From: an uncultured Sulfuricella sp.
Lineage (GTDB): Bacteria > Pseudomonadota > Gammaproteobacteria > Burkholderiales > Sulfuricellaceae
Assembly (NCBI GenBank): GCA_964559825.1
Contig: CAZLJK010000003.1
Coordinates: forward strand, 74,858-138,857
Length of the DNA: 64,000 nucleotides
Reading direction: 5' to 3'
Part shown: piece after piece, positions 34,752-57,255 of the stretch
Numbering within the stretch: the first letter of the stretch is position 1
Layout of the letters: the number at the start of each line of letters is the position of its first letter
The notes under the pieces: generated by a model
The model's input: only the letters and a program-made list of their open reading frames with translations
What the model was told of the DNA's origin: nothing
Database searches by the model: none
Made by a program: the position numbers and the translations under genes

Positions 34752-35783
34752 ATGCACTGCCAGCTCCTGATTCCCGGTTTACCGACGACCGTTCCATCCG
34801 CAGCCGATGGGCGGGAACACCTACGCTTGCCCGCCCTGGAGACCTTGCTGGCGCGCGCTGGACAGCACGATGCCCAGGAGGGGGACATGACGGCCTGGCT
34901 ATGCCGGCAGTTCGGCGTGGAAAAACAGCGGGATTGGCCGGCGGCCCCCTTCACCTTGCTGGCGCGAGGCGGGGAGCCGGGCAGCGGTTACTGGCTACAG
35001 GCCGAACCGGTGCATCTGCAATTGCTGGGCAACCGCATCGTGCTGCGAAACAGCCTGGACCTTGCCGACGGCGAGGCTGCCAACCTGACCGATGCGCTCA
35101 ATCTTCATTTCGCCCAAGAGGGCCTGACTTTCCTGCCGACCCGGCCCGGCCACTGGCATGTGCGCCTCCCGGAGCCGCCCCGGCTGGAAACGCATCCGCT
35201 GGAAGCGGCGATCGGTCGCGACATCCGCTACTTTCTTCCGCATGGGCCGGACAGCACGCGCTGGCATCGGCTGCTCAATGAAATCCAGATGCTGCTGCAC
35301 GAGCATCCGGTTAATAAAGACCGGGAGCAACGCGGAGACTGGCCGGTCAACAGCATCTGGCCCTGGGGCGGGGGAACGCTGCCGCAGCGAGCGACCGCCG
35401 CCTACGGGCGGATCTGGGCGCATGACGACCTGACGACCGGCCTGGCGATTGCAGCCGGAATTGCGCGCGCCGCCCTGCCGGAGTCCGCAGCCAGCTGGCT
35501 GCGCCAAGCCACTCCCGGAACCCACCTGATCGTGCTCGATGCCTTGTGCGCCGCCACTTCGAGCGGCGATGCGGCAGGCCGGCACGCCGGCCTGCCGCAA
35601 CTCGAAAAAGACTGGTTCGCGCCGCTACGCCAGGCTCTGGCGCAAGGCAAGCTGCGCCGGCTGACGCTGCATATTCCAGGCGATACCGAGACGCGGACTT
35701 TCACGGTGGGTCGTAGCGATCTGTGGAAATTCTGGCGCGCCAGAAAACCCTATCAAACTTTCGTTGGAGACGCTAAATCATGA
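34752..35783 (+). CDS. Phosphoglycerate-mutase-like conserved protein (type usually adjacent to recJ in Betaproteobacteria)
   Basis: WLQAEPVHL, RWHRLLNEIQMLLHEHPVN...PVNSIWPWGGG pattern. Confidence 0.6.
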   Translation: MHCQLLIPGLPTTVPSAADGREHLRLPALETLLARAGQHDAQEGDMTAWLCRQFGVEKQRDWPAAPFTLLARGGEPGSGYWLQAEPVHLQLLGNRIVLRNSLDLADGEAANLTDALNLHFAQEGLTFLPTRPGHWHVRLPEPPRLETHPLEAAIGRDIRYFLPHGPDSTRWHRLLNEIQMLLHEHPVNKDREQRGDWPVNSIWPWGGGTLPQRATAAYGRIWAHDDLTTGLAIAAGIARAALPESAASWLRQATPGTHLIVLDALCAATSSGDAAGRHAGLPQLEKDWFAPLRQALAQGKLRRLTLHIPGDTETRTFTVGRSDLWKFWRARKPYQTFVGDAKS

Positions 35784-36397
35784 TGCACACCCCCGATTTT
35801 TTCCGGGAAACCCCCACCATCACCCTTTACGATCCGCTGGCCGAATTTCTGGGCGCGGCAGAAAAAGGAATCGTCGAATACCGCTACCTCGACGCGGTCA
35901 AACTGGCCGGACACTCTTGCCCCACGGTGGCAGGCGCCTGGCTGACGACGCGCAAGGCACTGGCAAGCCTGTATGGCGACGAACTGCCGGTGCGTGGCGC
36001 AATCCAGGTTTCATTCCGTGACGGCCAGGCTGACGGCGTGACCGGGGTGATCGCCAATGTCGTCGGCCTGATCACCGGCGCTGCGCAGACCGGCGGCTTC
36101 AAGGGAATCGGCGGGAAATTCGAGCGCAGAAACCTGCTGCATTTCAGCGCCGGCATCACCGGCGAGATTCGCTACACCCGGATGGATACCGGAATCAGCG
36201 TGGAGACCACCTATCATCCGGAGTGCGTCAGCCCCTCCCCCGACATGAAAGAGCTGATGCAAAAAGCCATGATGGGCGTTGCCAATGCGGAAGAGATAAG
36301 CCGATTCGGCGTGCTCTGGCAGGATAGAGTCAAGCGTATCCTGATCGACCATGCCGACGATGCCGAGCTGATCTCGGTCGTCATCGGCGGGAGGTAA
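35780..36397 (+). CDS. FmdE-like domain protein
   Basis: AVKLAGHSCPTVAGA (H-x-C-P) motif; ATGA overlap with the previous gene. Confidence 0.7.
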   Translation: MMHTPDFFRETPTITLYDPLAEFLGAAEKGIVEYRYLDAVKLAGHSCPTVAGAWLTTRKALASLYGDELPVRGAIQVSFRDGQADGVTGVIANVVGLITGAAQTGGFKGIGGKFERRNLLHFSAGITGEIRYTRMDTGISVETTYHPECVSPSPDMKELMQKAMMGVANAEEISRFGVLWQDRVKRILIDHADDAELISVVIGGR

Positions 36398-36402
36398 GGC
36401 GT

Positions 36403-36942
36403 ATGGCCGAACACCACGAAATTTCCCTGCTGCTCACGCCGGATGTTGTAGAAACCCAATGCCTGGAAACCATCAAACAAGCACGCAACGCCAGCCACGC
36501 CCTGGCGGCGCTGATCGCCCTGCAGGCCTTTGTTTCAGCCACTGCCCGCCCGACAGATTGCCACACCCCGGCTTATGAGTTGGTCAAGGCGGTCATCGAA
36601 AAGCATGCCATCGCAACCCGGGCAAAAATTCTCGCCGAAAATGCGGCCGACCTGGCCAAGGCGATCCGACAGAGGAACCGGCCGGAAATTGCGCATATCC
36701 ATTCCGCACTATCCCGCAACGGTTTCTGGCAGGCGGCGCAGCAGGCCATCGGCCAACTCAGGCCGGACGATCTGGCTAGCGCTGCCGCGTGGGCAAAAGA
36801 CTGGTGTAGCGAAGCCAAGAAGCAAGCCCAAGCTGCCAGTGGCTACCCGGATGCGCTGGATTTCGGCAAGGCCGGAATTGCCGCAACCGAATATGCCGCC
36901 ATGACGGAAATCAATCTTTATTTCACCGATATCATCAGTTAA
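36403..36942 (+). CDS. Hypothetical alpha-helical protein
   Basis: GGAGG RBS, 179 aa, no recognised motif. Confidence 0.65.
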   Translation: MAEHHEISLLLTPDVVETQCLETIKQARNASHALAALIALQAFVSATARPTDCHTPAYELVKAVIEKHAIATRAKILAENAADLAKAIRQRNRPEIAHIHSALSRNGFWQAAQQAIGQLRPDDLASAAAWAKDWCSEAKKQAQAASGYPDALDFGKAGIAATEYAAMTEINLYFTDIIS

Positions 36943-41468: not shown

Positions 41469-41491
41469 TATAATCAAAGTTATATTTGAAT
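41469..41491. promoter_or_regulatory. Putative ArsR operator 1, overlapping a TATAAT -10 box
   Basis: AATCAAA-N6-TTTGAAT; the reverse complement matches the site at 42266 at 20/23 nt. Confidence 0.7.
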
Positions 41492-41506: not shown

Positions 41507-42166
41507 ATGGCTGCCGTCACCCCCAAAAAGAAACTCTTCGAGAACTTCGCCCTGGTCGCGAAAGCGCTTGCCAGTGCCAATCGGCTTGAATTGCTGGAGG
41601 CTCTTGCACAAGGCGAGCGTGGCGTGGATGGGTTGGCGCAAGCCAGCGGCATGTCGGTAGCCAATACTTCCCACCACCTGCAAATCCTTCGCGGAGGCGG
41701 ACTGGTCCAGTCGCGCAAGGAGGGCACTCAGGTTATCTACAGTTTGACCGACGAAAAGGTGCTTGCACTGTTGGCGGGTATCCGCAATGTGGCTGAACAA
41801 CACTTGGCTGAAGTGGAGCGCATCGTCCGCGAGAACTTTGAGAGCCGTGACAACTTGACTCCCGTCCGTCGAGATGAGCTTCTAGGGTTGGTGAAATCCG
41901 GGGAGGCGATGGTGATTGATGTTCGTCCCTCCGCTGAATATGATGCCGGCCATATTGCAGGGGCGGTCAATATCCCGATTGAATCCCTGCCGGACCGGCT
42001 AAGCCAATTGCCTCACGATCAGGAGATTGTTGCCTACTGCCGCGGCCCTTATTGCATGCTGGCCTTCGATGCGGTTGAACAGCTGCGCCAGCTCGGCTAC
42101 CGTGCCCGCCGACTGGAAGACGGCTTCCCAGAGTGGAAGGTCGATCACCTTCCTGTCGGCCGCTAA
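41507..42166 (+). CDS. ArsR/SmtB transcription factor fused to a rhodanese domain
   Basis: KALASANRLELLEAL...ANTSHHLQIL HTH; rhodanese IDVRP..EYDAGHIAGA and YCRGPYC. Confidence 0.93.
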   Translation: MAAVTPKKKLFENFALVAKALASANRLELLEALAQGERGVDGLAQASGMSVANTSHHLQILRGGGLVQSRKEGTQVIYSLTDEKVLALLAGIRNVAEQHLAEVERIVRENFESRDNLTPVRRDELLGLVKSGEAMVIDVRPSAEYDAGHIAGAVNIPIESLPDRLSQLPHDQEIVAYCRGPYCMLAFDAVEQLRQLGYRARRLEDGFPEWKVDHLPVGR

Positions 42167-42233: not shown

Positions 42234-42288
42234 TTGACGACTTTGCGGTTATTGCCGAATAATATATTCAAATATTCATTTGATTATA
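42234..42288 (+). promoter_or_regulatory. Putative sigma70 promoter plus ArsR operator 2 upstream of the persulfide dioxygenase operon
   Basis: TTGACG (42234)...AATAAT (42258), then ATTCAAA-N6-TTTGATT (42266-42285). Confidence 0.68.
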
Positions 42289-42317: not shown

Positions 42318-43055
42318 ATGTTTTTCAGGCAACGTTTAGCCAAGGAAGCCACCCTGTCCTATCTGCTCGGCTGCGGATCATGTGGTGTTTCGGTGGCGGT
42401 GGACCCGGTTGCGGGTGACGAGGATTGGTTTACCGAAGAGGCCGCCAGGCAAAACGTCAAGATCACCCATGTCTTTGACACCCACGTTCATGCCGATCAC
42501 TACTCGGGCGGGCGAGCGCTGGCCGAGAAGTCAGGCGCCCAATACTGCCTGCATGAAGCCAACCAGGGGCGGGTGCAGTTCCCTTTCCATGCGCTTTCGG
42601 ACGGGGAAACCATAGCGGTGGGCAACGTCGCAGTGAAGGTGATGCATACGCCCGGCCATACCCCTGACAGCCTATGCCTGACCGTCACCGACAAGCGCCG
42701 CAGCGCCGAACCCTGGTTCGTGCTCACCGGCGACACCCTGTTCGTGGGCAGCATCGGCCGCCCCGATCTGGCGGGCAAGGGCAGGGAATGGGCGGAGCAG
42801 CTGTTCGACAGCCTGCATGCGCAGCTGATGTCCCTGCCTGATGAAGTGGAGGTTTTTCCCGGCCATACCTCCGGCAGCGTTTGCGGTGCGGGAATTTCCG
42901 GCAAACCTTCCTCCACGGTTGGATTTGAAAAGCGTTTCAATACCGGCCTGAAAATGACCAGCAAGGACGAGTTCGTCAGTTACATTCTGTCCGACATCCC
43001 TCCCCGCCCGGCGGAAATGGAACGCATCGTGGCTGTCAATCTGGGGGCGGCATGA
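42318..43055 (+). CDS. Persulfide dioxygenase-like MBL-fold protein
   Basis: FDTHVHADH, HTPGHTP, LTGDTLFVGSIGRPDL, PGHTSGSVCG. Confidence 0.88.
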   Translation: MFFRQRLAKEATLSYLLGCGSCGVSVAVDPVAGDEDWFTEEAARQNVKITHVFDTHVHADHYSGGRALAEKSGAQYCLHEANQGRVQFPFHALSDGETIAVGNVAVKVMHTPGHTPDSLCLTVTDKRRSAEPWFVLTGDTLFVGSIGRPDLAGKGREWAEQLFDSLHAQLMSLPDEVEVFPGHTSGSVCGAGISGKPSSTVGFEKRFNTGLKMTSKDEFVSYILSDIPPRPAEMERIVAVNLGAA

Positions 43056-44371
43056 GCCACACTTTGCGCAATGGATACCAGGAGTACCGCCATGGTATTC
43101 GCGAAAACTTTGCGCAATTTTCCCACCAGCTGCTTCAGGTATTTCTGGTCGGAATGACCATCGGCATGATGCGTACCGTAGTGCCGGCTCTGGGCGAGAC
43201 CGAATTCGGCGTGCCCAAGGGCTCCTTCATGTTGCTGACCACCTTCGTGGTGGCTTTCGGCTTCGTCAAGGGCACGCTTAATTTCGTTGCCGGACGCCTG
43301 TCCGAGCGCATCGGGCGGCAAAAGGTGTTGCTGCTGGGCTGGGCAGCGGCATTGCCGATCCCGTTCATGATTCTTTATGCGCCCAACTGGAACTGGATTG
43401 TCGCCGCAACCGTGCTGCTGGGCGTGAATCAGGGCCTGACCTGGTCCATGACCCAAACCGCCAAGCTGGACATCACCCGGCCCGATCAAAGAGGCTTTGT
43501 GATCGGACTGAATGAATTCTCCGGCTATGTCGGTCTGGCAGTTGCAGGCATCATCACCGGTTACATGGCGACTGCCTATGGGCCGCGCCATGGGCTGCTG
43601 ATATTTGGCGTTGCGGTGATTATTCTGGCCGCGCTACTCACCATCCTGTGGGTCAAGGACACCTTGCCCTGGGCCAAGGCGGAAGGCGCCAAGCATGCCG
43701 CCGGGCAGTCCACCGGACCGAAACCGCGCTATCCCGCCAACATCGCCGACCAACCCACCACCTGGGAGGTATTCTCCCTCATGTCGTGGCGCGACAAGCG
43801 CATGGCTTCCATCAGCCAGGCAGGCCTGGTGGAGAAATTCGTGGATGCCCTGGTCTGGGTGTTTTATCCGGTTTTTCTTTACGGCCATGGACTATCCCTG
43901 GCCAGCATTGGCTGGGTGATCGGCGTATACGGCTTCGTCTGGGGCGGTTCCCAGTTCTTCACCGGCAAACTCTCCGACCATATCGGCAGGCAGAAGCCCA
44001 TCGTATGGGGCATGTGGTTATGCGGTGCAGGAGTGGCGATGATGCTCCTGGGCCAAGGCGTCGCCTGGTGGTCCTTGTCGGCAGCCGTGTCCGGCCTCGG
44101 CATGGCGCTGCTGTACCCCAACCTGTCAGCAGCCGTATCCGATATCGCCCACCCCAACTGGCGCGGCTCGGCCATCGGCATCTACCGCTTCTGGCGCGAC
44201 CTTGGCTATGGCATTGGGGCCTTGGCGCTAGGGATCGTGGCGAGCTTTAGCGGTGCCATCGAGGAAGCTTTCTGGTTCGTCGCTGTCTGCATGTTCCTCT
44301 CAGGTCTGGTCGTCCGGATTTGGGGAGAAGAAACTCATCCGCGGCTCAACCCCGCGCCCGCAATTAACTAA
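43052..44371 (+). CDS. MFS transporter
   Basis: About 12 hydrophobic segments; GRLSERIGRQK and GKLSDHIGRQK MFS motif A. Confidence 0.93.
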   Translation: MSHTLRNGYQEYRHGIRENFAQFSHQLLQVFLVGMTIGMMRTVVPALGETEFGVPKGSFMLLTTFVVAFGFVKGTLNFVAGRLSERIGRQKVLLLGWAAALPIPFMILYAPNWNWIVAATVLLGVNQGLTWSMTQTAKLDITRPDQRGFVIGLNEFSGYVGLAVAGIITGYMATAYGPRHGLLIFGVAVIILAALLTILWVKDTLPWAKAEGAKHAAGQSTGPKPRYPANIADQPTTWEVFSLMSWRDKRMASISQAGLVEKFVDALVWVFYPVFLYGHGLSLASIGWVIGVYGFVWGGSQFFTGKLSDHIGRQKPIVWGMWLCGAGVAMMLLGQGVAWWSLSAAVSGLGMALLYPNLSAAVSDIAHPNWRGSAIGIYRFWRDLGYGIGALALGIVASFSGAIEEAFWFVAVCMFLSGLVVRIWGEETHPRLNPAPAIN

Positions 44372-44383
44372 CAGGATCCCCTC

Positions 44384-44854
44384 ATGAAACCGGCTCAACT
44401 CATTTCCTCATTACTCCTCGTGGCATGCTCATCCCTGATGCTGCCGACAGTCTCCCTCGCCGCCGACAACGCGGCGGTAAAGGCCATGGGGGAGTATTTC
44501 GAATTCTCCGAATACGGCGGCGCCACCATCCTGCCCGAACAGATCCCGGCCGCAGACTGGAAAAATGTCTACGTGATCGACACCCGCGACGCCGACCAAT
44601 ACAAAAAGGCCCACATTCCCGGCGCCGTGAACATCGACTGGCGGCAAGTTCTCGGCCGCCGTGCCGAACTACCCGAAGACAGAATGGTGCTGGTGTACTG
44701 CAATTCCGGCACGCTCTCCGCTCAGGCCGGCTTGGCGCTGCGCGTGGCGGGCATGGAAAACGTGCGCATCTTGCAGGGCGGATTCAACGAGTGGAAAGCA
44801 AAGGGCGGGTTCGACGCCTACCGGCGCGCAATACGGAGTTCTGGCAAAAAGTAA
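44384..44854 (+). CDS. Exported single-domain rhodanese
   Basis: Signal peptide; IDTRD..QYKKAHIPGA; VLVYCNSGTLS active-site loop. Confidence 0.88.
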   Translation: MKPAQLISSLLLVACSSLMLPTVSLAADNAAVKAMGEYFEFSEYGGATILPEQIPAADWKNVYVIDTRDADQYKKAHIPGAVNIDWRQVLGRRAELPEDRMVLVYCNSGTLSAQAGLALRVAGMENVRILQGGFNEWKAKGGFDAYRRAIRSSGKK

Positions 44855-44899
44855 AGAGCAGGCACATCAAATCCATACCTATAAATCGAGGAGATCGAC

Positions 44900-45340
44900 A
44901 TGTTGTTAAATAAATTCAAATTTTTACTTGCGCTGCTGCTGGCATTCGCGGCGCTTCCCAATGTTTCCTACGCTGGCGGCCCCCCGGGCCAGGCGGTGTT
45001 CAACGGCCAGAAAGTGCTTACCCTGATCGGTCGCGATCCGCCCGGGGTGCGTTGCAACAACAACATGCAGATTGCCGCCGAGTTGGCCAATATTTACAAG
45101 CTGCCGGTTCAGATCATCCCGGTGACATTCGCCGGCGCCGGCGCCAAGGCGCCGGCAGTGTACTACGGCGATCAGTTGGTCGCGGTGGACGAGGGCGAGC
45201 TGAACGGCATGGTGAGCTATGCCGAAATCGCCGATATCCTGGAAATCGAGGGTGTGCCGAAACAGGAGCAGCAGGGGCGCCTGATGGAAATCAAAAAAGA
45301 TTTCGACGGCCTCAAAGCGGCGATCAAGGACGTTAAATAG
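44900..45340 (+). CDS. Exported hypothetical protein with a single Cys (possible thioredoxin-like fold)
   Basis: Signal peptide, GGAG RBS, PPGVRCNNN motif, later KAPAVYYGD; fold is inference. Confidence 0.7.
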   Translation: MLLNKFKFLLALLLAFAALPNVSYAGGPPGQAVFNGQKVLTLIGRDPPGVRCNNNMQIAAELANIYKLPVQIIPVTFAGAGAKAPAVYYGDQLVAVDEGELNGMVSYAEIADILEIEGVPKQEQQGRLMEIKKDFDGLKAAIKDVK

Positions 45341-45370
45341 CGGCCAGCACGGAGATAAGGAGTACAAATA

Positions 45371-45754
45371 ATGCTTACGAGAACGCCGGGAAGGTTTTTG
45401 TTTGTGGTCACAGCGTTTCTGGCGCTGCTGACCAGCCAGGTCTTCAGCGGGGAACTGGCACAACTGAAGGGCAGGATCGTCGGGGAGAAATGCGCGCAAC
45501 TTGGAAAAATCGGCGAGTGCTATCTCAAGTGGGCAAATCCGATGGTGTTCTGGACTGAAGAAGGGGACTACTACGCCATCGACCTGTCCGGCAAGAGTGG
45601 CGTGGCCGAGGAAAAATTCGACGAAGCATTCGGTCAGGAAGTCGAGCTCCAGGGTGAAATTCTGAAAAAAGGGGAGAAGGAGCAGATACGGGTTGCACAA
45701 CTCAAAATTCTGAAACCCGTTGCCGGCAAAGAATTTTTCAAGGGATGACTGTAA
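45371..45754 (+). CDS. Exported small protein, candidate selenoprotein ending KEFFKG-Sec-L (stop at 45748 if UGA is not recoded)
   Basis: Signal peptide; C-x8-C; TGA 45746-45748 followed by CTG TAA and a SECIS-like hairpin. The CDS itself is well supported; Sec read-through is inferred. Confidence 0.7.
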
Positions 45755-45790
45755 ACCCAGATCCCCGGGTGGGATCGAAAAGAGCAGTAA
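45746..45790 (+). promoter_or_regulatory. Putative bacterial SECIS element
   Basis: TGA + 11 nt (CTGTAAACCCA) + 17-nt hairpin GATCCC-CGGGT-GGGATC (45760-45776); lower stem ACTG(T) 45748-52 pairs with (G)CAGT 45784-88. Confidence 0.62.
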
Positions 45791-45837
45791 AAACAGAGCG
45801 TCTCGATATATTCAGCAGTTGGGTGGCAGGAGAAAAC

Positions 45838-46743
45838 ATGAGGTTTGGACATTGGCGATTCCAGCATTTTCTGCTTGCGGCCGTTCTTGCCCTGAGCGGC
45901 GCGGCAGCTTCGGCGGGGCAGAATTATGCCAGGCCCGAGCTTTTGATCGAAACCGAGGAGCTGGCGAAAATTCTCGGTCAGCCCAACGTCAGGCTAATTG
46001 ATGCCGCTGAAGGCGCTGGCTACCAGCGGGCGCATATTGCGGGCGCGGTCAATATTTACTATCTCGATCTCTCCAGGCTCGATGAGCGCAAGAAAAACGG
46101 TTTTCCCCTGAGCCAGGCTGAAGCGGAGAGGGTGTTCGGCGCTGCCGGGATCGATGCCGCCACGCAGGTCATCATCTACGATAGCGGTGAAGGAAATTCT
46201 GCATCGGGAGTGTGGTTTGTGCTCGACTTTTTCGGCCACAAAAACGTCAAGGTGCTAAATGGGGGGTTTCGCAAGTGGCTGAAGGAAAACCGCCTTGTAA
46301 CCCAGGACGTACCCGCACCCGAGAGGAAGAAATTTACCGCAAAGCCTGACGCCGGGCGCATCGTGACGCGAGCCTGGATGGAGAAAAATCTGCAAACCAA
46401 GGAAGCCATGGTGGTGGATACGCGCTCGTTCAATGAGTTTATTGGCAAGGACATGCGCCCAGGCGCCTCGCGTGGCGGACACATCCCCGGCGCGACCCAT
46501 CTCGAATGGACCCGGTTTTCAGACAAGCTGAATAGCTTCAAATCTGCCGAGCAAATCGAAAAGGCACTCAACCAGCGCGGCATCACCAGGGATACCAAGG
46601 TCGTCACCTATTGCCAGTCCGGCATTGGACGCTCTACCGATGTGGCTCTGGCGATGAAACTGATCGGCTACGACAATGTGGTCGAGTATTCAGGTTCATG
46701 GGAAGAGTGGTCGGTCGACCCGCGCTTACCTATCGAACGTTAA
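45838..46743 (+). CDS. Exported two-domain sulfurtransferase (rhodanese/MST family)
   Basis: AGGAG RBS + signal peptide; YQRAHIAGA, RGGHIPGA, VVTYCQSGIGRS, YSGSWEEW. Confidence 0.9.
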   Translation: MRFGHWRFQHFLLAAVLALSGAAASAGQNYARPELLIETEELAKILGQPNVRLIDAAEGAGYQRAHIAGAVNIYYLDLSRLDERKKNGFPLSQAEAERVFGAAGIDAATQVIIYDSGEGNSASGVWFVLDFFGHKNVKVLNGGFRKWLKENRLVTQDVPAPERKKFTAKPDAGRIVTRAWMEKNLQTKEAMVVDTRSFNEFIGKDMRPGASRGGHIPGATHLEWTRFSDKLNSFKSAEQIEKALNQRGITRDTKVVTYCQSGIGRSTDVALAMKLIGYDNVVEYSGSWEEWSVDPRLPIER

Positions 46744-46772
46744 CATGAAACTCGCGAAGCGAGCCTGCGTCC

Positions 46773-46806
46773 CTCTCTCCCTCTGGGAGAGAGTAAGGAG
46801 AGAGGG
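46773..46806. repeat. REP-like palindrome (same style as 10397)
   Basis: CTCTCTCCC-TCT-GGGAGAGAG followed by TAAGGAGAGAGGG. Confidence 0.6.
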
Positions 46807-46819
46807 CAACGGGCAAATC

Positions 46820-47344
46820 ATGAAGTATCCGGTTCACGCGTTGCTGGCGCTGTTCGTCCTGCTTATCCCGGTCATGGCTACTGCGGGAGCGCTCACGCCC
46901 GTCAAGGGTGAGATGCTGGCGAGCGACTTCGTCACGAGGGATTTGGCGGGGCGCACGGTACGCTTCAATACCTTTCAGGGCAAGGTGGTGGTACTCAATT
47001 TCTGGGCCACCTGGTGCTCGAATTGCCGCAAGGAGATGCCCTCGATGGAGGTGCTCCATCAGTCTTATAAAAACCAGGGGCTGGTGGTGCTGGCGGTGTC
47101 GCAGGATCAGGTGAGCGCGCGCACCGTGCAGGCCTATGTGGATGAACTCAAGCTGAGCTTCCCGGTGTGGCACGACCGAGACGGGCTGATCGGCAGGCAG
47201 TACGGCATCTCCGGCGTACCGGTGTCGTATCTGATCGGGGCGGACGGGCGCATCGCCTATCGTGTGACCGGCGATTACGACTGGTTCGGGGCGGAGGCGC
47301 GCGCGGCGGTAGAGACGCTGCTCGCGGCGCGCGCTTCACGTTAA
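46820..47344 (+). CDS. TlpA/ResA-like thiol-disulfide oxidoreductase
   Basis: Signal/TM segment; GKVVVLNFWATWCSNCRKEMP; GVPVSYLIG. Confidence 0.92.
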   Translation: MKYPVHALLALFVLLIPVMATAGALTPVKGEMLASDFVTRDLAGRTVRFNTFQGKVVVLNFWATWCSNCRKEMPSMEVLHQSYKNQGLVVLAVSQDQVSARTVQAYVDELKLSFPVWHDRDGLIGRQYGISGVPVSYLIGADGRIAYRVTGDYDWFGAEARAAVETLLAARASR

Positions 47345-47380: not shown

Positions 47381-50134
47381 ATGGTCGACAGACGTGATTT
47401 TCTGAAACTTTCCGGCACGGGCCTGTGCGCATTCGCGCTCGGCCTGTCCGAGGAATTGCAGGCGCGGATTCTCTCGGTGGATGATCCGCTGGTCTCCTAC
47501 CCCGACCGCTCGTGGGAGGATTTCTACCGCAAGGAGTTCGTCGGGACGCGCGGCAATGCTCAGGGTTTTGCCTTTCACTGCTCCAACTGCCAGGGCAACT
47601 GCGCTTTTCGCGTGTTCGCCAAGGATGGCGTCGTGACGCGCGAGGAACAGCTTGCGCAATACCCGCAGATCAGCCCGGACATTCCCGACCCCAATCCGCG
47701 CGGCTGCAACAAGGGAACCATCCACTCCCAGGCCATGTACGAGAAGGATCGGCTGCTCTACCCGCTCAAGCGTGCGGGCGCTCGCGGAGAGGGCAAGTGG
47801 CAGCGCATTTCCTGGGATCAGGCCATGGGTGAAATTGCGGAGAAGATCGTGGACACCCTGGCGGAACACGGTCCGGGCGGACTCCTGCTTTACGCCGGCA
47901 CCGGGATCGTGTCGCAGGGCCGGCGCGCGGGGCCGTTGCGCCTGGGGTCGCTGCTCGGTTCGACTCGCCTCTACCCATCCAGCGCGGTCGGCGACATGTT
48001 TACCGGCGCCGCGCTGGCCTATGGCATTCCCAACGTGGGCACTTCGCTCGATGCCTGGTTCGAGATGGACTACATCGTGTTGTGGGGCTTCAATCCCAAC
48101 GTGACCCGCATTCCGGACGCCCATTATCTTTGGGAAGCGAAGTGGCGCGGCGCCAAAATCGTGGTGATCTCGCCGGACTATAATCCCACCGCCATCCACG
48201 CCGACTGGTGGATACCCATCACGCCCGGCTCCGACAGTTTCCTCGCCATGTCGCTGGTGCATGTAGTGCTGAAAGAAAAGCTGTACAAGGAAGACTTTAT
48301 CCGCGAGCAGACCGACCTGCCCTTCCTGGTGCGCGAGGATACGGGCATGCTCCTGCGCCTCTCCGACCTGCGCAAGGATAGCAAGAACGATGTATTTTAT
48401 TGCTGGGACGAAGTGAGCGGTGCAGCCGTCGTCATGCCCGGTTCCCAGGGGCATTTCAGGAAGACCCTGCGGCTGGGCGCGATTCGTCCGGCGCTTACCG
48501 GTCGCTACGAGGTGAAGGGCCACGACGGCAAGATGATCCCGGTCACCACCGCGTTCGAAAAAGTACGCGCCGAAGCGGAAAAATACTCACCCGAGAAAAC
48601 GCAGGCGCAGACCGGCATTTCCCCTGCGCTGGTGACCAAGCTGGCACGCGAATATGCCGCGGCGCATGACCCCGGCCTCACCATCGGCTTCTCGCTGCAT
48701 AAGTACGCCTGGGGCATACTCACCTGCTGGGCGCAAGCCCTGTTTTGCGCGCTCACCGGCCATGACGCGGTGGACACCGAGCATCAGTGGAGCCTGGGCG
48801 GCCTCGGGCCAATGACCGCGCCTAAACCCGCGCGCTTCGAATCCGGGTTTCTGGGCGAGTGGTTTTCGGGGCGCATGTGGGAGACTTTCGAGCGTCACTA
48901 CGCCGGGGAAGAATTCAAGCAGCGCACCGGCATCACACCGGACGATCTGGTGAAACTGGCCGAGCGCTCGCGCGATGACAAGTGGCACACCAATTATGTC
49001 GAACCGAAAATCCGCATCCTGTTCGGCGACAATATTTTCCGCCGTAACAAGTCCTCGGAGCATTACCGCAAGACCGTGCTGGATGCGACCGAACTTTACG
49101 TCAACGTCAACTTTCGTATGGATTCCTCGGCGGAATACGCCGACTACGTGCTGCCCGCCATCAGCCACTACGAAGGCTGGGACATACGCGGCGAGGTCGG
49201 TTATCACCGTTACGCCAATCTGACCGTGCCGCCAAAGGATTTGAAGCCGGTCGGCGAGACCAAGCCGGAGTGGGAGATATGCCGACTGCTGGCCGAACAT
49301 ATCGAGGCGAAAGCGAAGCTGCGGGGTCTCGGCCAGATCAAGGACCCGCTTTTCACCATGAAGAAGGATGGCAAGGACATCCCGATCACGCGCGATCTCG
49401 ATACGCTGGTTTTCGATTTCACCATGCAGGGCAAGGTCAACACCGACAAGGATGTGGTGAAGTGGCAGATCGAGAATGTCCCCGCTTTCCAGCCATGGAA
49501 ATTCGAGGATGCGATCGAGCGCGGCTTTCTCGTACTTAACAACAGCGCCGGTCTGACCTCGCCCCTGTATGCCGACAAGCCTTACCGTTCGTTCGAGGAG
49601 CAATTCCACCTCAAGCGCCCCTACCCGACGCTCTCCGGTCGCCAGCAGTTCTACATCGACCAGGAAACATTCGCCAAACTCGGTTGCAGCGTGCCCACGG
49701 CGCGGGAAGGACTGCACCCCTCGCGCTTCCCGCTCAAGTTTTATTCGCCGCATGCGCGCTGGGGCATTCACTCCACCTGGCGCAGCAACAAATACATGCT
49801 GCGCATGCAGCGGGGCGTGCCCCATCTCAACCTCAATCCGCAGGATGCCACCCAGCGCGGCATCCAGGATGGCGACACGGTGCGCGTTTTCAATGATATC
49901 GGCGAATTCCGGGCGATGGCCAGGATCATGCCCAGCCTGCAACCCGGCACGCTCATGATGGATCATGCCTGGGAGCCGCATCAGTTCCTCAAACGCATGG
50001 GCATGGATGCGCCGGTCGCCGGGTTGCTCTCTCCGCTCGAGCTTGCGGGCGGCTGGGGTCATCTCAAATTCGGCGCGGAATGGGACGGTAACCAGCTTGC
50101 CCACGAATCCACTGTTGACGTAGCGAAAGTCTGA
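47381..50134 (+). CDS. DMSO reductase family type II molybdoenzyme, alpha subunit (Tat-exported)
   Basis: DRRDFLK Tat motif; FS0 motif HCSNCQGNC...PRGCNKG; RLLYPLKRAGARGEGKWQRISWDQA; candidate Asp ligand in SAVGDMFTG; C-terminal SPHARWGIHSTW. Confidence 0.93.
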   Translation: MVDRRDFLKLSGTGLCAFALGLSEELQARILSVDDPLVSYPDRSWEDFYRKEFVGTRGNAQGFAFHCSNCQGNCAFRVFAKDGVVTREEQLAQYPQISPDIPDPNPRGCNKGTIHSQAMYEKDRLLYPLKRAGARGEGKWQRISWDQAMGEIAEKIVDTLAEHGPGGLLLYAGTGIVSQGRRAGPLRLGSLLGSTRLYPSSAVGDMFTGAALAYGIPNVGTSLDAWFEMDYIVLWGFNPNVTRIPDAHYLWEAKWRGAKIVVISPDYNPTAIHADWWIPITPGSDSFLAMSLVHVVLKEKLYKEDFIREQTDLPFLVREDTGMLLRLSDLRKDSKNDVFYCWDEVSGAAVVMPGSQGHFRKTLRLGAIRPALTGRYEVKGHDGKMIPVTTAFEKVRAEAEKYSPEKTQAQTGISPALVTKLAREYAAAHDPGLTIGFSLHKYAWGILTCWAQALFCALTGHDAVDTEHQWSLGGLGPMTAPKPARFESGFLGEWFSGRMWETFERHYAGEEFKQRTGITPDDLVKLAERSRDDKWHTNYVEPKIRILFGDNIFRRNKSSEHYRKTVLDATELYVNVNFRMDSSAEYADYVLPAISHYEGWDIRGEVGYHRYANLTVPPKDLKPVGETKPEWEICRLLAEHIEAKAKLRGLGQIKDPLFTMKKDGKDIPITRDLDTLVFDFTMQGKVNTDKDVVKWQIENVPAFQPWKFEDAIERGFLVLNNSAGLTSPLYADKPYRSFEEQFHLKRPYPTLSGRQQFYIDQETFAKLGCSVPTAREGLHPSRFPLKFYSPHARWGIHSTWRSNKYMLRMQRGVPHLNLNPQDATQRGIQDGDTVRVFNDIGEFRAMARIMPSLQPGTLMMDHAWEPHQFLKRMGMDAPVAGLLSPLELAGGWGHLKFGAEWDGNQLAHESTVDVAKV

Positions 50135-50144
50135 GGAAGAAGAA

Positions 50145-51305
50145 ATGTCGAAACGACAACTAGCCATGGTGATGGATCTCAACAAGTGCATCGGTTGCCA
50201 GACCTGCACCTCGGCCTGCAAGACCCAATGGACCAACCGCAACGGGCGCGAATACATGTACTGGAACAATGTCGAGACCCGTCCGGGCCAAGGCTATCCG
50301 CGCAAGTGGGAGGAAGCGGGCGGGGGTTTCGACGCCGCCGGGCACTTGAAACCCGGGCGCATCCCTGATCTGCGGCGCGACTACGGTGCGGCGTTCGACA
50401 TGAACTACCTGGAAGCGCTCAATCCTCGCGGACATGACCAGCCTCCCTCCTTCGACGGCGCGGAACACCCGCATCTGGCGCCCGTGGAGATGCCGGTGAA
50501 CGGCCCCAACTGGGACGAGGATCAGGGCGCGGGCGTATACCCTAACAGCTATCATTTTTACCTGCCGCGCATTTGCAATCACTGCACCCATCCGGCCTGC
50601 GTTGCGGCCTGTCCGCGCAAGGCGATCTACAAGCGCGAGGAGGACGGCATCGTGCTCGTCGATCAGTCGCGCTGCCGTGGTTACCAGCATTGTGTCGAGG
50701 CCTGTCCATACAAGAAGATCTATTTCAATCCGACCTTCAAGCGTTCGGAGAAGTGCATTTTCTGCTTCCCGCGCATCGAGCAGGGATTGCCGCCGGCATG
50801 CGCGCAGCAGTGCGTGGGGCGGATTCGCTTCGTCGGCTACCTCGACGACGTGGAAAGCCCGGTGTACAAACTGGTGGAAAAATGGAAAGTGGCGCTGCCG
50901 CTACACGCCGAGTTCGGCACCCAGCCGAATGTGTACTACGTCCCGCCCCTGTCGCCGTCGAGCTACGATGCCGAGGGCAATCTGACGGGCGAGCGGCGCA
51001 TCCCGGATGAAGTCCTGGTCAATTTTTTCGGGCCGCGCGTGCCGGAAGTGCTGATGCTGCTGGAGCAGGAGCGGGAAAAAAAGCGCCGGGGCGAAAAATC
51101 CGAGCTCATGGAGACGCTCATTGCCTATCGCCATGAGGAGATGTTCAAGCTCGATGCCGCGTATTACCAGAAGGCCAAGGCGGCTCCCGCGCCCAGGAGT
51201 CAACGGGGCATTCCTGTCCTGGCATGGGAAGACCGGGAGGGCTGGGAAGAATTCAGAAAAACGCGCGAAATCGCCGCTGGCAATTTTCCGGGAGAGGTGG
51301 CATGA
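50145..51305 (+). CDS. DMSO reductase family type II, iron-sulfur beta subunit (NarH/EbdB/SerB-like)
   Basis: DLNKCIGCQTCTSACK, YLPRICNHCTHPACVAACP, CRGYQHCVEACPYKK, KCIFCFPR...CAQQCVGRIR. Confidence 0.95.
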   Translation: MSKRQLAMVMDLNKCIGCQTCTSACKTQWTNRNGREYMYWNNVETRPGQGYPRKWEEAGGGFDAAGHLKPGRIPDLRRDYGAAFDMNYLEALNPRGHDQPPSFDGAEHPHLAPVEMPVNGPNWDEDQGAGVYPNSYHFYLPRICNHCTHPACVAACPRKAIYKREEDGIVLVDQSRCRGYQHCVEACPYKKIYFNPTFKRSEKCIFCFPRIEQGLPPACAQQCVGRIRFVGYLDDVESPVYKLVEKWKVALPLHAEFGTQPNVYYVPPLSPSSYDAEGNLTGERRIPDEVLVNFFGPRVPEVLMLLEQEREKKRRGEKSELMETLIAYRHEEMFKLDAAYYQKAKAAPAPRSQRGIPVLAWEDREGWEEFRKTREIAAGNFPGEVA

Positions 51306-52360
51306 AGCGGACTGCGCAACGATTCGGGTGGCTGTGGGCCGCGCTGGCCGTGGCGCTGGCGATGAATTTCCCCTTTGCGTCGGCCGGGGACGCGGCGACT
51401 TTCATCAGCGCAAAAAAGAGCGGAGCCGAGCCGCCACTTGACCCGCTGGATCCGGCCTGGGAGAAGCTTGATCCGACCCCGGTCGCGCTCTACCCGCAGG
51501 CTAGCATTGCACCGGGATCTGATCAAGATGGCGTGTTGTACGCCAGGGTGCGCGCGCTTTACAGCGGCAAAACCCTGGCCCTGCACGTCGAGTGGCCCGA
51601 TGCCAAGCCATCGGCGACCCGCTCAATCGGCGAGTTTGCCGACGGTATCGCGGTGCAATGGCCGCTACGCTATGGTTCTGGCGTGAGTTTGCCTTATGTC
51701 GGCATGGGTCATGGCGGCGTAGCGGCGGCGCTGTGGCTATGGCGCGCGGACGGTTCCGTGGAGACGCTCGCGGCGGAAGGCTTTGGCACCCTGACGGCGC
51801 AACCGTCCGGTGGCGTAAAAGCCAGCGGGGCGTGGCGTGACGGCAAGTGGCAGGTCGTCTTCACGCGCTCCACCGCTCCCTCGGCGAACGGGCAGCATGT
51901 CCGTTTCGACCCCGCGAAACAGGGGATCGTGCCCTTGGCGCTGGCGCTGTGGAGCGGAGAGGCGCAGGAACGCGACGGCAAGAAGCGCCTGTCCGCCTGG
52001 CAGGCTTTGCGTTTTGAGAAGGCTGCCGCGAACGAGGCTTATCTCAGGTCGTTTGCCGCTGTGGCAAACGGCAATGCCGAAAATGGCAAGCGGCTGATGG
52101 CGGAAAAGGGCTGCGTCGGCTGCCACAGCTTTCCGGGCAATGCCGCGCAGCCGACGGTGGGTCCGAACCTCACTTACGTCGGCGGCATTCATCATGCCGA
52201 TTACCTGCTCGAATCGATCACAAACCCGTCCCTCATCATTGTCCCTGGCAAGACCTATTCCACGGCGCAGAATGGCAAGCGGGTTTCGCTGATGCCGCCG
52301 TTTCAGGGCACGAAACAGGAAAGGCAGGATATTGCCGCGTTTCTCCAGATGCTACGGTGA
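51302..52360 (+). CDS. Type II gamma subunit (EbdC-like heme b domain) fused to a C-terminal cytochrome c
   Basis: Signal peptide; VRALYSG.TLALHVEWPD, FADGIAVQWP, YVGMG, AEGFGTL, W.DGKWQVVFTR, KKRLSAW; then GCVGCH CxxCH and SLMPPF. Confidence 0.85.
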   Translation: MKRTAQRFGWLWAALAVALAMNFPFASAGDAATFISAKKSGAEPPLDPLDPAWEKLDPTPVALYPQASIAPGSDQDGVLYARVRALYSGKTLALHVEWPDAKPSATRSIGEFADGIAVQWPLRYGSGVSLPYVGMGHGGVAAALWLWRADGSVETLAAEGFGTLTAQPSGGVKASGAWRDGKWQVVFTRSTAPSANGQHVRFDPAKQGIVPLALALWSGEAQERDGKKRLSAWQALRFEKAAANEAYLRSFAAVANGNAENGKRLMAEKGCVGCHSFPGNAAQPTVGPNLTYVGGIHHADYLLESITNPSLIIVPGKTYSTAQNGKRVSLMPPFQGTKQERQDIAAFLQMLR

Positions 52361-52407
52361 TCGGGTACTTTGTTTGACGGTGTTACATCTTGAAGGAGGG
52401 ATCAACC

Positions 52408-52638
52408 ATGTGGGGCTATTATGGCAATTATGGTTGGGGGAGCGGCGGCATGGTGCCTATGCTGCTGATGTGGACGGTGATTATTCTGGTTATCGCGGTA
52501 CTGGCGAAGTGGATATTCGGGAAGCCGACCGAAACCACGCATGGCAAGACTGCGCTCGAAATTCTCAAAGAGCGTTATGCGCGGGGTGAGATCGATCGTG
52601 AGGAATTTGATCAAAAGAGGCGGGATATTGGGGGCTGA
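52408..52638 (+). CDS. Small membrane protein with a SHOCT domain
   Basis: MWGYYG..GGM, one TM segment, ALEILKERYARGEIDREEF. Confidence 0.88.
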   Translation: MWGYYGNYGWGSGGMVPMLLMWTVIILVIAVLAKWIFGKPTETTHGKTALEILKERYARGEIDREEFDQKRRDIGG

Positions 52639-52642
52639 GCCC

Positions 52643-54036
52643 ATGGTGAATACTGAATCCTTGCGGCGCCTTGCGGCGCTGCCCGCAGTGTATGAAGTTC
52701 TCGCTCACCCGCAGATTGAGGCGCTTGCGGAAAATATCGACCACGACCTGCTGGTGACCGGGATACAGTCTAGTCTGGCGCTCCACCGCGAGGCGCTGCG
52801 GGCTGATCCACAGCATCGTTCGCCCAGCGCGGATGAACTCGCGCAGGAAGTCGCGCTGAAGGTGGCAAAATGGCATCAGCCCGGACTCGTGCCGGTCATC
52901 AATCTCACCGGTACGCTGCTGCACACCAACCTCGGACGTGCGCCGCTCTCGGCGGAGGCGGTAGCGACGCTGGTGCGCGCCGCAGGCACGGTGAATCTCG
53001 AGTATGACCTCGTTGCCGGCAAGCGCGGCGAGCGCGATACGCAAGTGGAAGCGCTGCTGACCCGCCTGACCGGCGCCGAAGCCGCGACCGTGGTCAACAA
53101 CAATGCCGCAGCTTTGTATCTCGCGCTCAATACGTTGGCCAACAAGCGCCGTGTGGTGGTGAGCCGGGGCGAACTGGTGGAAATCGGCGACAGTTTCCGC
53201 GTGCCGGACATCATCCGGGCCAGCGGTTGCCGGCTGATGGAAGTCGGCACTACCAACCGCACCCACCTCGCCGACTACCGGCAGGCACTGGATGAAGGTG
53301 GTACTTTGCTGCTCAAGGTGCATACCAGCAACTACCGCGTGGTGGGGTTCACCAGCGAAGTGCCGCTGGTCGATCTGGTGAAGCTTGGCAGGGAGAGAAA
53401 TATTCCGGTGGTGGTGGATCTGGGTAGCGGGGCGCTGGTGGATGTGAGTCGCTATGGGGTTCTTGGAGAGCCTTTGGTACAGGATGCGGTGCGCGCCGGG
53501 GCGGACCTGGTGACCTTCAGCGGCGACAAGCTGTTGGGCGGCCCGCAGGCCGGGGTGATGGTCGGGCGCACGCCTTTTATCAAGCGTGTCCGGCGTAATC
53601 CCATGAAGCGCGCGCTGCGTTGCGACAAGCTTGTTCTGGGCGCGCTCGACGCGACCCTGGCCGCCTATCTCTCGCCGCAGACGCTGGAGCGGAAACTTCC
53701 CACCTACCGCATGCTGTCGCGTAGCCTGGATGAGATCGAAGCGCTGGCGCGGCAGGTGCAACCCCATCTCGAACGCTGGGCGCAGGGACGCGCGCGAGCC
53801 GAACTGGTTCCCACGCGCGCGCAAGTGGGCAGCGGTGCTGCGCCGGATGCCACGCTCCCGTCGCTGGCTTTTGCGCTCACGCCGCTGAAGGGGGTTTCGG
53901 CAGCGCAGCTCGCGCGCGCCCTGCGCCAGCTCTCGCCGCCGGTAATCGGGCGCCTGCACGACGGCGGACTACTGCTCGACCTGCGCGCTCTGCTCGATGC
54001 CGAGCCGCTCATCCGTGCATTCAATGGGACTCTGCC

Positions 54037-54040
<4 letters not shown>
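52643..54040 (+). CDS. selA: L-seryl-tRNA(Sec) selenium transferase
   Basis: PVINLTGTLLHTNLGRAPL, VNNNAAA, SRGELVEIG, EVGTTNRTH, PLP lysine motif FSGDKLLGGPQAG. Confidence 0.96.
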
Positions 54041-55943
<1,903 letters not shown>

Positions 55944-55947
<4 letters not shown>

Positions 55948-56453
55948 ACAGGATACTCAAAGGACTGGCCGTCCTGCTGGTGTTTTTTCCGACACTGCTT
56001 CTGGCTACGCCGGCTAAGGAGTCACTCCTCGATCTGGAGGGGCAGCCCCATACGCTCGACGAATATACGGGGCGGGGGAAATGGCTGGTAGTCACGGTCT
56101 GGGCTTCCGATTGCGCGGTGTGCAACCGGGAAATCCACGAGTTGATGGTTTTTCATCAGGCGCACCGGGAAACGGATGCCAGCGTGCTCGGTATTTCAGT
56201 GGATGGGCTTGGCGGCAGGCAAAACGCGTTGGCATTCATCAAACGGCACGGGGTAAACTTCCCCAATCTGCTGGATGATGGAAGCGCATTCAAGGCGATT
56301 TATCTGCGCGCTACCGCTCGCCCCTGGTTCGGAGGGACGCCCATGAACCTGGTCTATGCGCCTTCCGGGGAACTGCTGGCGCGACGCATCGGCCCGTTGG
56401 GCAAGGCCGAACTCGAGGCGTTCATCAAGCAGGCAGGAGAACGAAAGCAATAG
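55944..56453 (+). CDS. TlpA-like exported thiol-disulfide oxidoreductase
   Basis: Signal peptide; GKWLVVTVWASDCAVCNRE; GGTPMNLVY. Confidence 0.88.
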
Positions 56454-56469: not shown

Positions 56470-56566
56470 GGAGAGGATGATCGTCCGGTTGGCATCCGCG
56501 GGCTTCAAACCCGTTGGGAGGCAGGTTTCCTGTCTCTGGTAGGTTCGACTCCTACCCTCTCCACCA
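56470..56566 (+). tRNA. selC: tRNA-Sec (UCA), apparent 7/5 (12-bp) type
   Basis: Anticodon loop CTTCAAA; 9-bp variable arm; GTAGG-TTCGACT-CCTAC T-arm; GGAGAGG/CCTCTCC acceptor stem; ends ACCA; lies next to selAB. Confidence 0.92.
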
Positions 56567-56588
56567 TCAAAAGTAAAAGGAGGACAAC

Positions 56589-56939
56589 ATGAAAACTCTT
56601 TTCATACTCAACGATCCGCCCTACGGCACAGAGCGCAGCTACAACGGCTTCCGCCTGGCGCGGGCGCTGGCGAAGCACGAGGACAACGAAATCCGCGTGT
56701 TCCTGCTGGGCGATGCGGCCCTGTGTGCCAAGGCGGGGCAGAAGGTGCCGGAAGGCTATTACAACATCGAATTCTTCGCTCAGAGCATTTTGAAGCGTGG
56801 CGGCGAAATCGGCGTGTGCGGGGTATGCATGGAAGCGCGGGGTCTGAAAGACGAGGAACTCATCCCCGGTTGTCAGCACAGCACGCTGGAGCACCTGGCC
56901 GAATGGACCATGTGGGCGGAGAAAGTGCTCACTTTCTGA
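56589..56939 (+). CDS. DsrE/YchN-family sulfur relay protein
   Basis: ILNDPPYGTERSYNGFRLA, FLLGDAA, VCGVCMEARG. Confidence 0.9.
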   Translation: MKTLFILNDPPYGTERSYNGFRLARALAKHEDNEIRVFLLGDAALCAKAGQKVPEGYYNIEFFAQSILKRGGEIGVCGVCMEARGLKDEELIPGCQHSTLEHLAEWTMWAEKVLTF

Positions 56940-57255
56940 TTCTGGAAGCCGGCCCGGTATTTCATGCAAAGAAGGGTCCCCGGTTCTGGAAGTTTCCGCC
57001 ATGCGAGCCACCTGGGTTCGCAGGAGGCCTTATAGTTAGGAGCGCCGCCCTCGGCGCGAATTCGGCCACAAATCGCGGCGATGGCCAATCCATTCTCAAC
57101 CCGATTCGCCCGGTTCAGCGACCGGAGCGGCGTACCCTATCGCGCGATTTTAGTCCTGGCAAATAGTACAAATGGACGTTTTCAAGCACGCGCATGTTCA
57201 CTACACTGGCTCTACGGCAATACCCCCAGGCAAACACCAACATAAGGGAGTCAAC

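Follow-up and report, generated by a model that had tools for sequence, protein, structure and literature searches.

How sulfane sulfur is handled in the periplasm of sulfur oxidisers without SoxCD is still unsettled, and the operon described here bears on that question. It lies in a stretch of 64,000 nucleotides (the window, whose numbering we use unless a related locus is named) from an uncultured Sulfuricella sp. (GenBank assembly GCA_964559825.1, contig CAZLJK010000003.1, forward-strand positions 74,858 to 138,857), where five consecutive + strand open reading frames at 44384-47344, Rhd1, P146, SecP, Rhd2 and TlpA, precede the genes of a molybdenum enzyme, MoABC. We show a type II molybdoenzyme that is accompanied by a predicted periplasmic carrier armed with selenocysteine (Sec) or cysteine, by a tandem rhodanese and a TlpA-type reductase, and by a protein of thioredoxin-like fold whose single Cys is Sec in some lineages; this set, conserved in many sulfur oxidisers, points to an undescribed, selenium-dependent form of periplasmic sulfur handling.

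In the Sox system of Paracoccus pantotrophus (SoxYZ/SoxCD/SoxS/SoxV) the carrier holds sulfur close to the tip of a conserved C-terminal arm, as SecP would, and the thioredoxin-type protein SoxS keeps the carrier SoxY reduced, as we propose for TlpA here. SoxCD, as cited in PMC6397845, is a cytochrome c-coupled molybdoenzyme that oxidises protein-bound sulfane sulfur. However, SecP is an OB-like (oligonucleotide/oligosaccharide-binding) barrel with no fold or family match to SoxY, and its tail is KEFFKGUL, ending in G-U-L rather than GGCGG. Likewise, MoABC is a bis-MGD (molybdopterin guanine dinucleotide) ABC complex of the type II dimethyl sulfoxide (DMSO)-reductase family, whereas SoxC belongs to the sulfite-oxidase family; carrier loading would be by a rhodanese and not by SoxXA, and the operon has no gene for a SoxB-like hydrolase.

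In Wolinella succinogenes, the periplasmic rhodanese-fold protein Sud binds sulfane sulfur and serves Psr, a molybdopterin polysulfide reductase that faces the membrane or the periplasm. Sud, however, has one domain, is a homodimer and works with a reductase of the Psr/Phs clade, whereas here a tandem rhodanese of the thiosulfate sulfurtransferase (TST) type accompanies a type II enzyme with cytochrome c, and the separate Sec carrier, the thioredoxin-like protein and TlpA are features of the present operon. MoABC itself resembles DdhABC, SerABC, ClrABC, PcrAB and EbdABC in its alpha subunit with a twin-arginine (Tat) signal, H/C-x3-C-x3-C FS0 motif and Asp ligand, its four-cluster beta subunit and its EB_dh gamma subunit. 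It differs from those enzymes in that gamma is fused to a cytochrome c, no delta chaperone gene lies in the operon, and a rhodanese and a Sec/Cys carrier always accompany it, although no characterised type II member is known to need them. Finally, in the thioredoxin reductase Sec arm and the 'UXX-star' and 'KCU-star' families, as outlined in a review (PMC13188914), Sec is separated by one to three residues from the end of the chain and belongs to a flexible tail by which redox equivalents or ligands are shuttled. SecP differs in that it is exported, has an OB-like body and a Sec insertion sequence (SECIS) beyond the true stop, and matches no Pfam or NCBIfam model, the NCBIfam selenoprotein models included.

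The exported proteins, the SecP arm and MoABC

44384..44854, + strand: Rhd1, predicted exported single-domain rhodanese, PspE/GlpE-like, Pfam Rhodanese (PF00581) 6e-21
44900..45340, + strand: P146, predicted exported 146-residue protein with one invariant Cys and a thioredoxin-like predicted fold
45371..45754, + strand: SecP, OB-like barrel protein predicted to be exported; has Cys41, Cys50 and UGA 45746-45748 read as Sec
45760..45776, + strand: SECIS-type hairpin, 6-bp stem, loop CGGGU, starting 11 nt past the UGA
45838..46743, + strand: Rhd2, predicted exported tandem TST-type rhodanese with two Rhodanese domains, 3.3e-38
46820..47344, + strand: TlpA, TlpA/ResA-type thiol:disulfide oxidoreductase, predicted to be exported or membrane-anchored
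47381..52360, + strand: MoABC, predicted periplasmic enzyme of the type II DMSO-reductase family; alpha, beta and gamma subunits
47381-50134, + strand: MoA (alpha), Tat signal, TIGR03479 988.8 bits (cut-off 984.75)
50145-51305, + strand: MoB (beta), TIGR03478 527.7 bits (cut-off 480.7)
51302-52360, + strand: MoC (gamma), heme b EB_dh domain (2.8e-25) fused to cytochrome c (Cytochrom_C)

The locus was compared across 18 loci from 18 genomes (related loci carry L numbers, genomes G numbers). A preliminary description of the window had claimed that all five frames carry signal peptides, and a hand-made test of the n, h and c regions, from which cleavage was inferred in place of SignalP, bore this out: all five are predicted to be of the general secretory (Sec) type, with a basic n-region and a hydrophobic core of mean Kyte-Doolittle hydropathy 2.7-3.4, against 1.9 or less in the cytoplasmic controls (ArsR-rhodanese, MBL, SelA and MoB). 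AXA-type cleavage sites are predicted (slash at the cut) at SLA/AD in Rhd1, SYA/GG in P146, VFS/GE in SecP, ASA/GQ in Rhd2 and ATA/G in TlpA, and in homologue alignments the N-terminal 20-30 residues are free in sequence with hydrophobicity kept, as is typical of signal peptides. MoC also has a Sec-type signal and MoA a twin-arginine one (TAT_signal 19.1, cut-off 16.7), so the signals together support the export of all five proteins into a periplasm shared with the Tat-exported enzyme. The motifs named in the same description (CNSG, GVRCNNN, Cys2/Sec, CQSG and CSNC) are likewise present and conserved.

The longest-frame starts of Rhd2 (45745) and TlpA (46676) were rejected, as homology begins at ATG 45838 and ATG 46820, respectively, and the signal peptides follow these starts; both are the most likely starts, that of Rhd2 with AGGAG upstream. 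A lipoprotein reading of Rhd1 (LVAC box) was also rejected because the signal-peptide Cys15 varies in orthologues while AXA/AD is kept.

SecP had been noted as a Sec candidate, and the candidate proved real. With the TGA read as Sec the protein ends KEFFKG-U-L-stop, and all of the 120 homologues listed are annotated as stopping exactly at ...FFKG. The UGA, a Leu codon that varies synonymously (CTG, CTA, CTC or CTT) and a true stop are kept in 17/17 loci from Sulfuricellaceae, Hydrogenophilales, Acidiferrobacterales, Hyphomicrobiales, Rhodospirillaceae, Burkholderiales, Nitrospirota and Thermodesulfovibrionales, and distant homologues from a profile search of 1.8 billion representatives end FFKGCL, SKSCL or SKACL. 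UGA in all of these loci and Cys at the same place in the distant homologues thus make a classical Sec/Cys pair. The SECIS-type hairpin covaries, three of its six stem pairs keeping their pairing through double substitutions (17-sequence consensus, G+C); single-sequence folding of the region was not significant (z = -1.27), and no Rfam family matched the hairpin. As bacterial selenoproteins are recognised by a conserved in-frame UGA with Cys homologues, a downstream hairpin and selA, selB, selC and selD in the genome, all of which were found, SecP is a real selenoprotein as far as sequence can tell. A literature search found no description of a selenoprotein ending in G-U-L or of the gene cluster, and neither SecP nor P146 appears among the selenoprotein families in the part of review PMC13188914 considered here.

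Structure prediction, proposed earlier as a check, gave monomer models in agreement with a thioredoxin-like P146 and an OB-like SecP. The AlphaFold model of SecP is a five-stranded barrel with a tail disordered from about residue 114 (pLDDT below 50-73), and its fold matches are weak OB folds, including periplasmic YgiW. The 13-residue tail is disordered in the model, and its sequence is almost invariant across all homologues.

P146 matched no Pfam or NCBIfam family model and belongs to a family of at least 279 homologues, all annotated as hypothetical, with a near-invariant pattern (RDPPGVRCNNN..., KAPAVYYG, DGG). Cys52 (codon 45053-45055, in RDPPGVRCNNN) is invariant in the alignment and is the only Cys, so that there is no CxxC. 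In the AlphaFold model (pLDDT 85; beta-alpha-beta-beta-beta-alpha topology) it sits where helix 1 (residues 50-65) makes its first turn, and the top 50 PDB fold matches are mostly thioredoxins (best probability 0.98-0.99, weak E of about 0.01-0.05, TM-score 0.35-0.55), weak matches that suggest a thioredoxin-like fold. P146 orthologues in L016 (Thermodesulfovibrionales; 9640-9960) and L018 (approximately 1540-1851) have an in-frame TGA exactly at the invariant Cys (R-U-N-K-N), an exchange of Cys for Sec that marks the Cys52 position as a reactive centre and bears out a side guess of the preliminary description. L018 would encode three selenoproteins in one operon.

Rhd1 and Rhd2 both have a rhodanese domain whose active-site loop begins with the catalytic Cys, and are predicted sulfurtransferases. 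In Rhd1 the loop is CNSGTL (Cys codon 44699-44701), kept as CN[SA]GTLS in L001-L003 and L005. In Rhd2 the C-terminal domain alone has the catalytic loop, CQSGIGRS (Cys at 46612-46614), kept as C-Q-[ST]-G-I-G-R-S in 16 loci; its best PDB relatives are Azotobacter vinelandii RhdA and the Thermus thermophilus rhodanese (TST), and its match to ExtH, the rhodanese of selenite/tellurite operons, is weak (55 bits, cut-off 200).

TlpA combines a thioredoxin fold (Pfam AhpC-TSA 1e-26, Redoxin 1e-20, also Thioredoxin_8), a hydrophobic N-terminus and the motif WCSNC, kept as FWATWCxxCR[KR]E in 12 loci. It falls below the curated NCBIfam cut-offs for ResA (117.1 bits against 170) and TlpA (74.9 against 230) and is, by these scores, a family relative rather than an equivalog of either. 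Four DsbD-type membrane proteins are encoded in the window genome and could be its source of reductant.

MoABC belongs to the type II DMSO-reductase family by its alpha and beta scores, Asp molybdenum ligand, Tat signal and EB_dh gamma subunit; MoC falls below the cut-off of the gamma model TIGR03477 (129.6 against 169.85), and no equivalog model was reached for the complex. The best solved relatives of MoA are the perchlorate reductase PcrA (475 bits) and the ethylbenzene dehydrogenase EbdA (395 bits), and its Asp205 aligns with the molybdenum-ligand Asp of EbdA. Since MoA retains this ligand of its own, we dropped the idea that the Sec of SecP ligates molybdenum in trans. A second, divergent type II DMSO-reductase ABC operon, with a MoA 41% identical, lies at L003:3515-8484 (minus strand) in a Sulfuricella metagenome-assembled genome (MAG), head-to-head with the relay operon and with two ArsR-rhodanese regulator genes flanking.

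Conservation across genomes

The expectation that these genes are conserved together held for a core, although the five are not one invariant unit. SecP is followed directly by Rhd2 in 16/16 loci with sufficient downstream sequence and MoA lies downstream of the pair in 13/13; TlpA is immediately upstream of MoA in 11 of these 13, and P146, present in 14/18 genomes, adjoins SecP or a divergent ArsR-rhodanese gene in 12 loci. Rhd1 is limited to L005 and the Sulfuricellaceae loci. SecP and Rhd2, usually with TlpA and usually with P146, are thus shown to be the core partners of the enzyme, and their association with it extends across Beta-, Gamma- and Alphaproteobacteria and Nitrospirota. Furthermore, L030, with a Cys-type carrier, has the set in a changed order, P146-carrier-TlpA-Rhd2-MoABC (P146 49%, Rhd2 41% and MoA 56% identical to those of the window, with the same EB_dh-cytochrome c gamma). 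As the set is kept despite this change, the association appears to be under selection and not merely inherited as gene order.

In nine loci (L002, L005, L007, L008, L010, L011, L013, L017 and L018) two genes are inserted between Rhd2 and TlpA; both were searched for in the window genome and not found. One encodes a transporter of the YeeE/TsuA family (PF04143) with an in-frame TGA in GGF-U-PGTC (for example L011:11390-12496) and a weak YedE/FdhT match, and the other a membrane-anchored rhodanese domain without the catalytic Cys. YeeE-family selenoproteins with a GUxSG motif are already known (PMC13188914), and the YeeE-like transporter is probably a second selenoprotein of the system.

The hosts of the related loci are named sulfur oxidisers, and SQR and DsrE-like genes occur near these loci. 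SoxC is absent from 17/18 genomes and true SoxY present in 10/18, including the window genome, where it is encoded elsewhere. In L017 (8607-16160) the alignments of ArsR-rhodanese, YeeE, TlpA and MoA are broken into two or three segments that lie in different frames, and so is that of MoA in L016 (11311-14074); these frame breaks are assembly errors or gene decay.

Regulator, cytoplasmic neighbours and Sec genes

41469..41491, strand not assigned: 23-nt operator-like site preceding the ArsR-rhodanese gene, with an inverted copy at 42266-42288
41507..42166, + strand: ArsR/SmtB-type regulator fused to a rhodanese (HTH_5 1.3e-10, Rhodanese 1.4e-18)
42234-42263, + strand: promoter-like site, 10/12 consensus match, upstream of the MBL gene
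42266-42288, + strand: second operator-like site, directly after the promoter-like -10 and 20/23 identical to inverted 41469-41491
42318..43055, + strand: metallo-beta-lactamase (MBL)-fold protein, probably cytoplasmic and possibly of the glyoxalase II/persulfide dioxygenase (PDO) type, HVHADH motif, Lactamase_B 2.4e-14
43052..44371, + strand: MFS transporter (MFS_1 4e-48)
52643-54040, + strand: selA (TIGR00474 551 bits)
54037-55947, + strand: selB, contiguous with the operon
55944-56453, + strand: second TlpA-like gene, CxxC protein (WASDCAVC), overlapping the end of selB, just before tRNA-Sec
56470-56566, + strand: tRNA-Sec (selC), found by ARAGORN and Rfam

Between the MBL gene and selC the intergenic gaps are at most 83 nt, and no terminator-like site was found between the genes. 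The ArsR-rhodanese protein (NCBIfam HTH_metalloreg 80 bits, cut-off 55) is a candidate cytoplasmic persulfide sensor, and its homologues adjoin the cluster in L003, L005, L006, L008, L011, L017 and L018. The paired operator-like sites, which like the promoter-like site are consensus matches only, would link the operon to this regulator.

The preliminary description had assigned the cytoplasmic side of the pathway to the MFS and PDO genes, an idea that the comparison did not support as a conserved feature: both genes are found only in the window and L005 (2/18 loci), with a remnant of the MBL gene in L003, and like Rhd1 they are lineage-specific extras. The MBL-fold protein shows no signal peptide in the n/h/c test and falls below the curated cut-offs for Blh (68 bits against 625) and GloB (75.8 against 200.8), so that only the MBL domain was matched. 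Eight loci (the window at 56505-57011, minus strand, L005, L006, L008-L011 and L017) have a DsrE/YchN-like gene no more than a few kb from the carrier gene; the long frame in the window had no Pfam match at E < 0.001.

The Sec genes continue the operon, with selD elsewhere in the genome (contig C110); selA and selB also follow MoC in L010 and L013, and selA is present in 14/18 genomes, the remainder being fragmented MAGs. The familiar explanation, that this machinery serves a formate dehydrogenase, was rejected: no Sec-containing FdhA was found in the window genome, and the enzyme occurs in only 3/18 related genomes. Therefore, in most hosts the Sec machinery seems to serve the operon. Two genomes, G003 and G014 (of L003 and L014), have two selA copies each. 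In G003 one copy neighbours a Sec-containing formate dehydrogenase and the second stands at another place in the genome, an arrangement suggesting that Sec machinery arrived together with the relay operon.

Two further features were seen in the window. A small SHOCT-domain membrane protein is encoded between MoC and selA (52390-52638), and three consecutive + strand frames (343, 205 and 179 residues; 34752-36942) without a Pfam match lie upstream of a sensor kinase, the 205-residue one containing an AGHSCP motif.

A proposed relay and its rivals

The preliminary description had envisaged a periplasmic hand-off of sulfane sulfur or selenium that feeds or drains the molybdenum enzyme. Its periplasmic setting is supported, as an exported thiol/selenol set shares that compartment with the enzyme; its MFS/PDO part does not hold as a conserved feature, and many loci have a Sec-containing YeeE with a Cys-less rhodanese domain instead. 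The context favours sulfur over selenium as the cargo. We propose, with a probability of about 45%, a Sox-like relay in which the rhodanese loads the Sec arm of the carrier with sulfane sulfur for the molybdenum enzyme, and TlpA and P146 reset the arm. In such a scheme, Rhd2 (with the PspE-like Rhd1 in the Sulfuricella lineage) would form a cysteine persulfide with sulfane sulfur drawn from thiosulfate or polysulfide and hand this sulfur to the selenolate at the tip of the SecP arm. The KEFFKG-U-L arm would then bring the selenium-bound sulfur into the substrate funnel of MoA for oxidation by oxygen-atom transfer, the electrons leaving via the Fe-S subunit, heme b and then the cytochrome c fused to gamma. 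TlpA, through its CxxC reduced via DsbD-type proteins, and P146 would resolve mixed Se-S or S-S adducts so that the arm stays reduced. Reactive sulfur would induce the operon by way of the ArsR-rhodanese regulator, and the PDO-like protein and MFS transporter would be lineage-specific additions on the cytoplasmic side. A bolder form of the proposal, in which the Sec-armed carrier is itself the true substrate of the molybdoenzyme, its selenium-bound sulfur being oxidised in the periplasm by a self-contained, horizontally mobile, selenium-dependent and SoxCD-independent system that also includes the Sec/Cys thioredoxin-fold and Sec-YeeE partners and is widespread in groundwater and sediment sulfur oxidisers, we consider doubtful.

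Several observations weigh against the relay. Free small molecules are the substrates of the nearest solved relatives of MoA, a perchlorate reductase and ethylbenzene dehydrogenase, and we know of no type II DMSO-reductase enzyme with a protein-bound substrate. Coupling to cytochrome c leaves the direction of catalysis unfixed. TlpA is missing from two Nitrospirota-type loci (L012 and L016) and P146 was not found in 4/18 genomes, the fold matches of P146 and SecP are weak (E of about 0.01-0.04), and the absence of SoxCD is common in these lineages anyway, which makes that correlation weak.

The free substrates of the characterised relatives would suit a different arrangement, in which the enzyme turns over a free small sulfur compound (organosulfur, or thiosulfate/polythionate) and the selenol and thiol proteins drain its product to a transporter, mostly the Sec-containing YeeE and in the window the MFS protein, for cytoplasmic processing of the PDO-like or DsrE type. 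The YeeE/TsuA-like transporter between Rhd2 and TlpA in nine loci, the MFS and PDO-like genes of the window and L005, and the DsrE-like genes near eight loci all fit this arrangement. However, the transporter is gone from the window genome and six other loci while carrier, rhodanese and enzyme persist, and the extreme conservation of the carrier tail fits docking to an enzyme better than simple scavenging; we regard draining as unlikely. With selenium as cargo, MoABC would be a periplasmic selenate reductase like Ser, whose subfamily (TIGR03479) includes MoA, and the selenite or selenide that it forms would be reduced and bound by SecP, P146, TlpA and the rhodaneses, for detoxification or for a YedE/YeeE-type importer and the Sec machinery. 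Rhodaneses can carry selenium in vitro, and the weak matches of Rhd2 to ExtH and of the transporter to YedE/FdhT, with selA-selB-selC adjacent, agree with such a role. Yet the adjacency of the sel genes is more simply explained by the one to three selenoprotein genes of the operon itself, an uptake system mainly feeding itself would be circular where Sec-formate dehydrogenase is absent (15/18 genomes), and the ArsR-rhodanese, SQR, DsrE and PDO-like neighbours, with the restriction to sulfur oxidisers, point to sulfur; we give the selenium reading little credence.

It is also improbable, in our estimate, that there is no hand-off at all and that the set serves maturation and protection, TlpA reducing the CxxCH of the gamma cytochrome c and the rhodaneses, P146 and SecP acting in antioxidant defence or thiol repair. 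PspE-like rhodaneses do take part in periplasmic thiol redox. The best family match of TlpA is the cytochrome c maturation reductase ResA (117 bits), and L016, in which MoB is not followed by a fused gamma-cytochrome c gene, lacks TlpA; many bacterial selenoproteins, moreover, are redox-protective (review PMC13188914). However, maturation and protection would explain neither a TST-type rhodanese and an invariant-armed carrier kept beside the enzyme in every locus nor Sec at up to three positions of the module, and for general cytochrome maturation further TlpA/DsbE paralogues are encoded in the genome.

In summary, the operon joins an unassigned molybdoenzyme clade with two families for which databases have no model (P146 and SecP), as many as three selenoproteins and its own Sec machinery. 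If the carrier model is true, it would give the first protein-bound substrate for an enzyme of the type II DMSO-reductase family, and SecP would be a new selenoprotein family with a chemical rationale, a selenolate being the better nucleophile and leaving group for sulfur transfer. It would also explain why many sulfur oxidisers keep Sec decoding without a formate dehydrogenase. Furthermore, it would correct the routine annotation of MoABC-type enzymes in metagenomes as selenate, chlorate or dimethyl sulfide enzymes.

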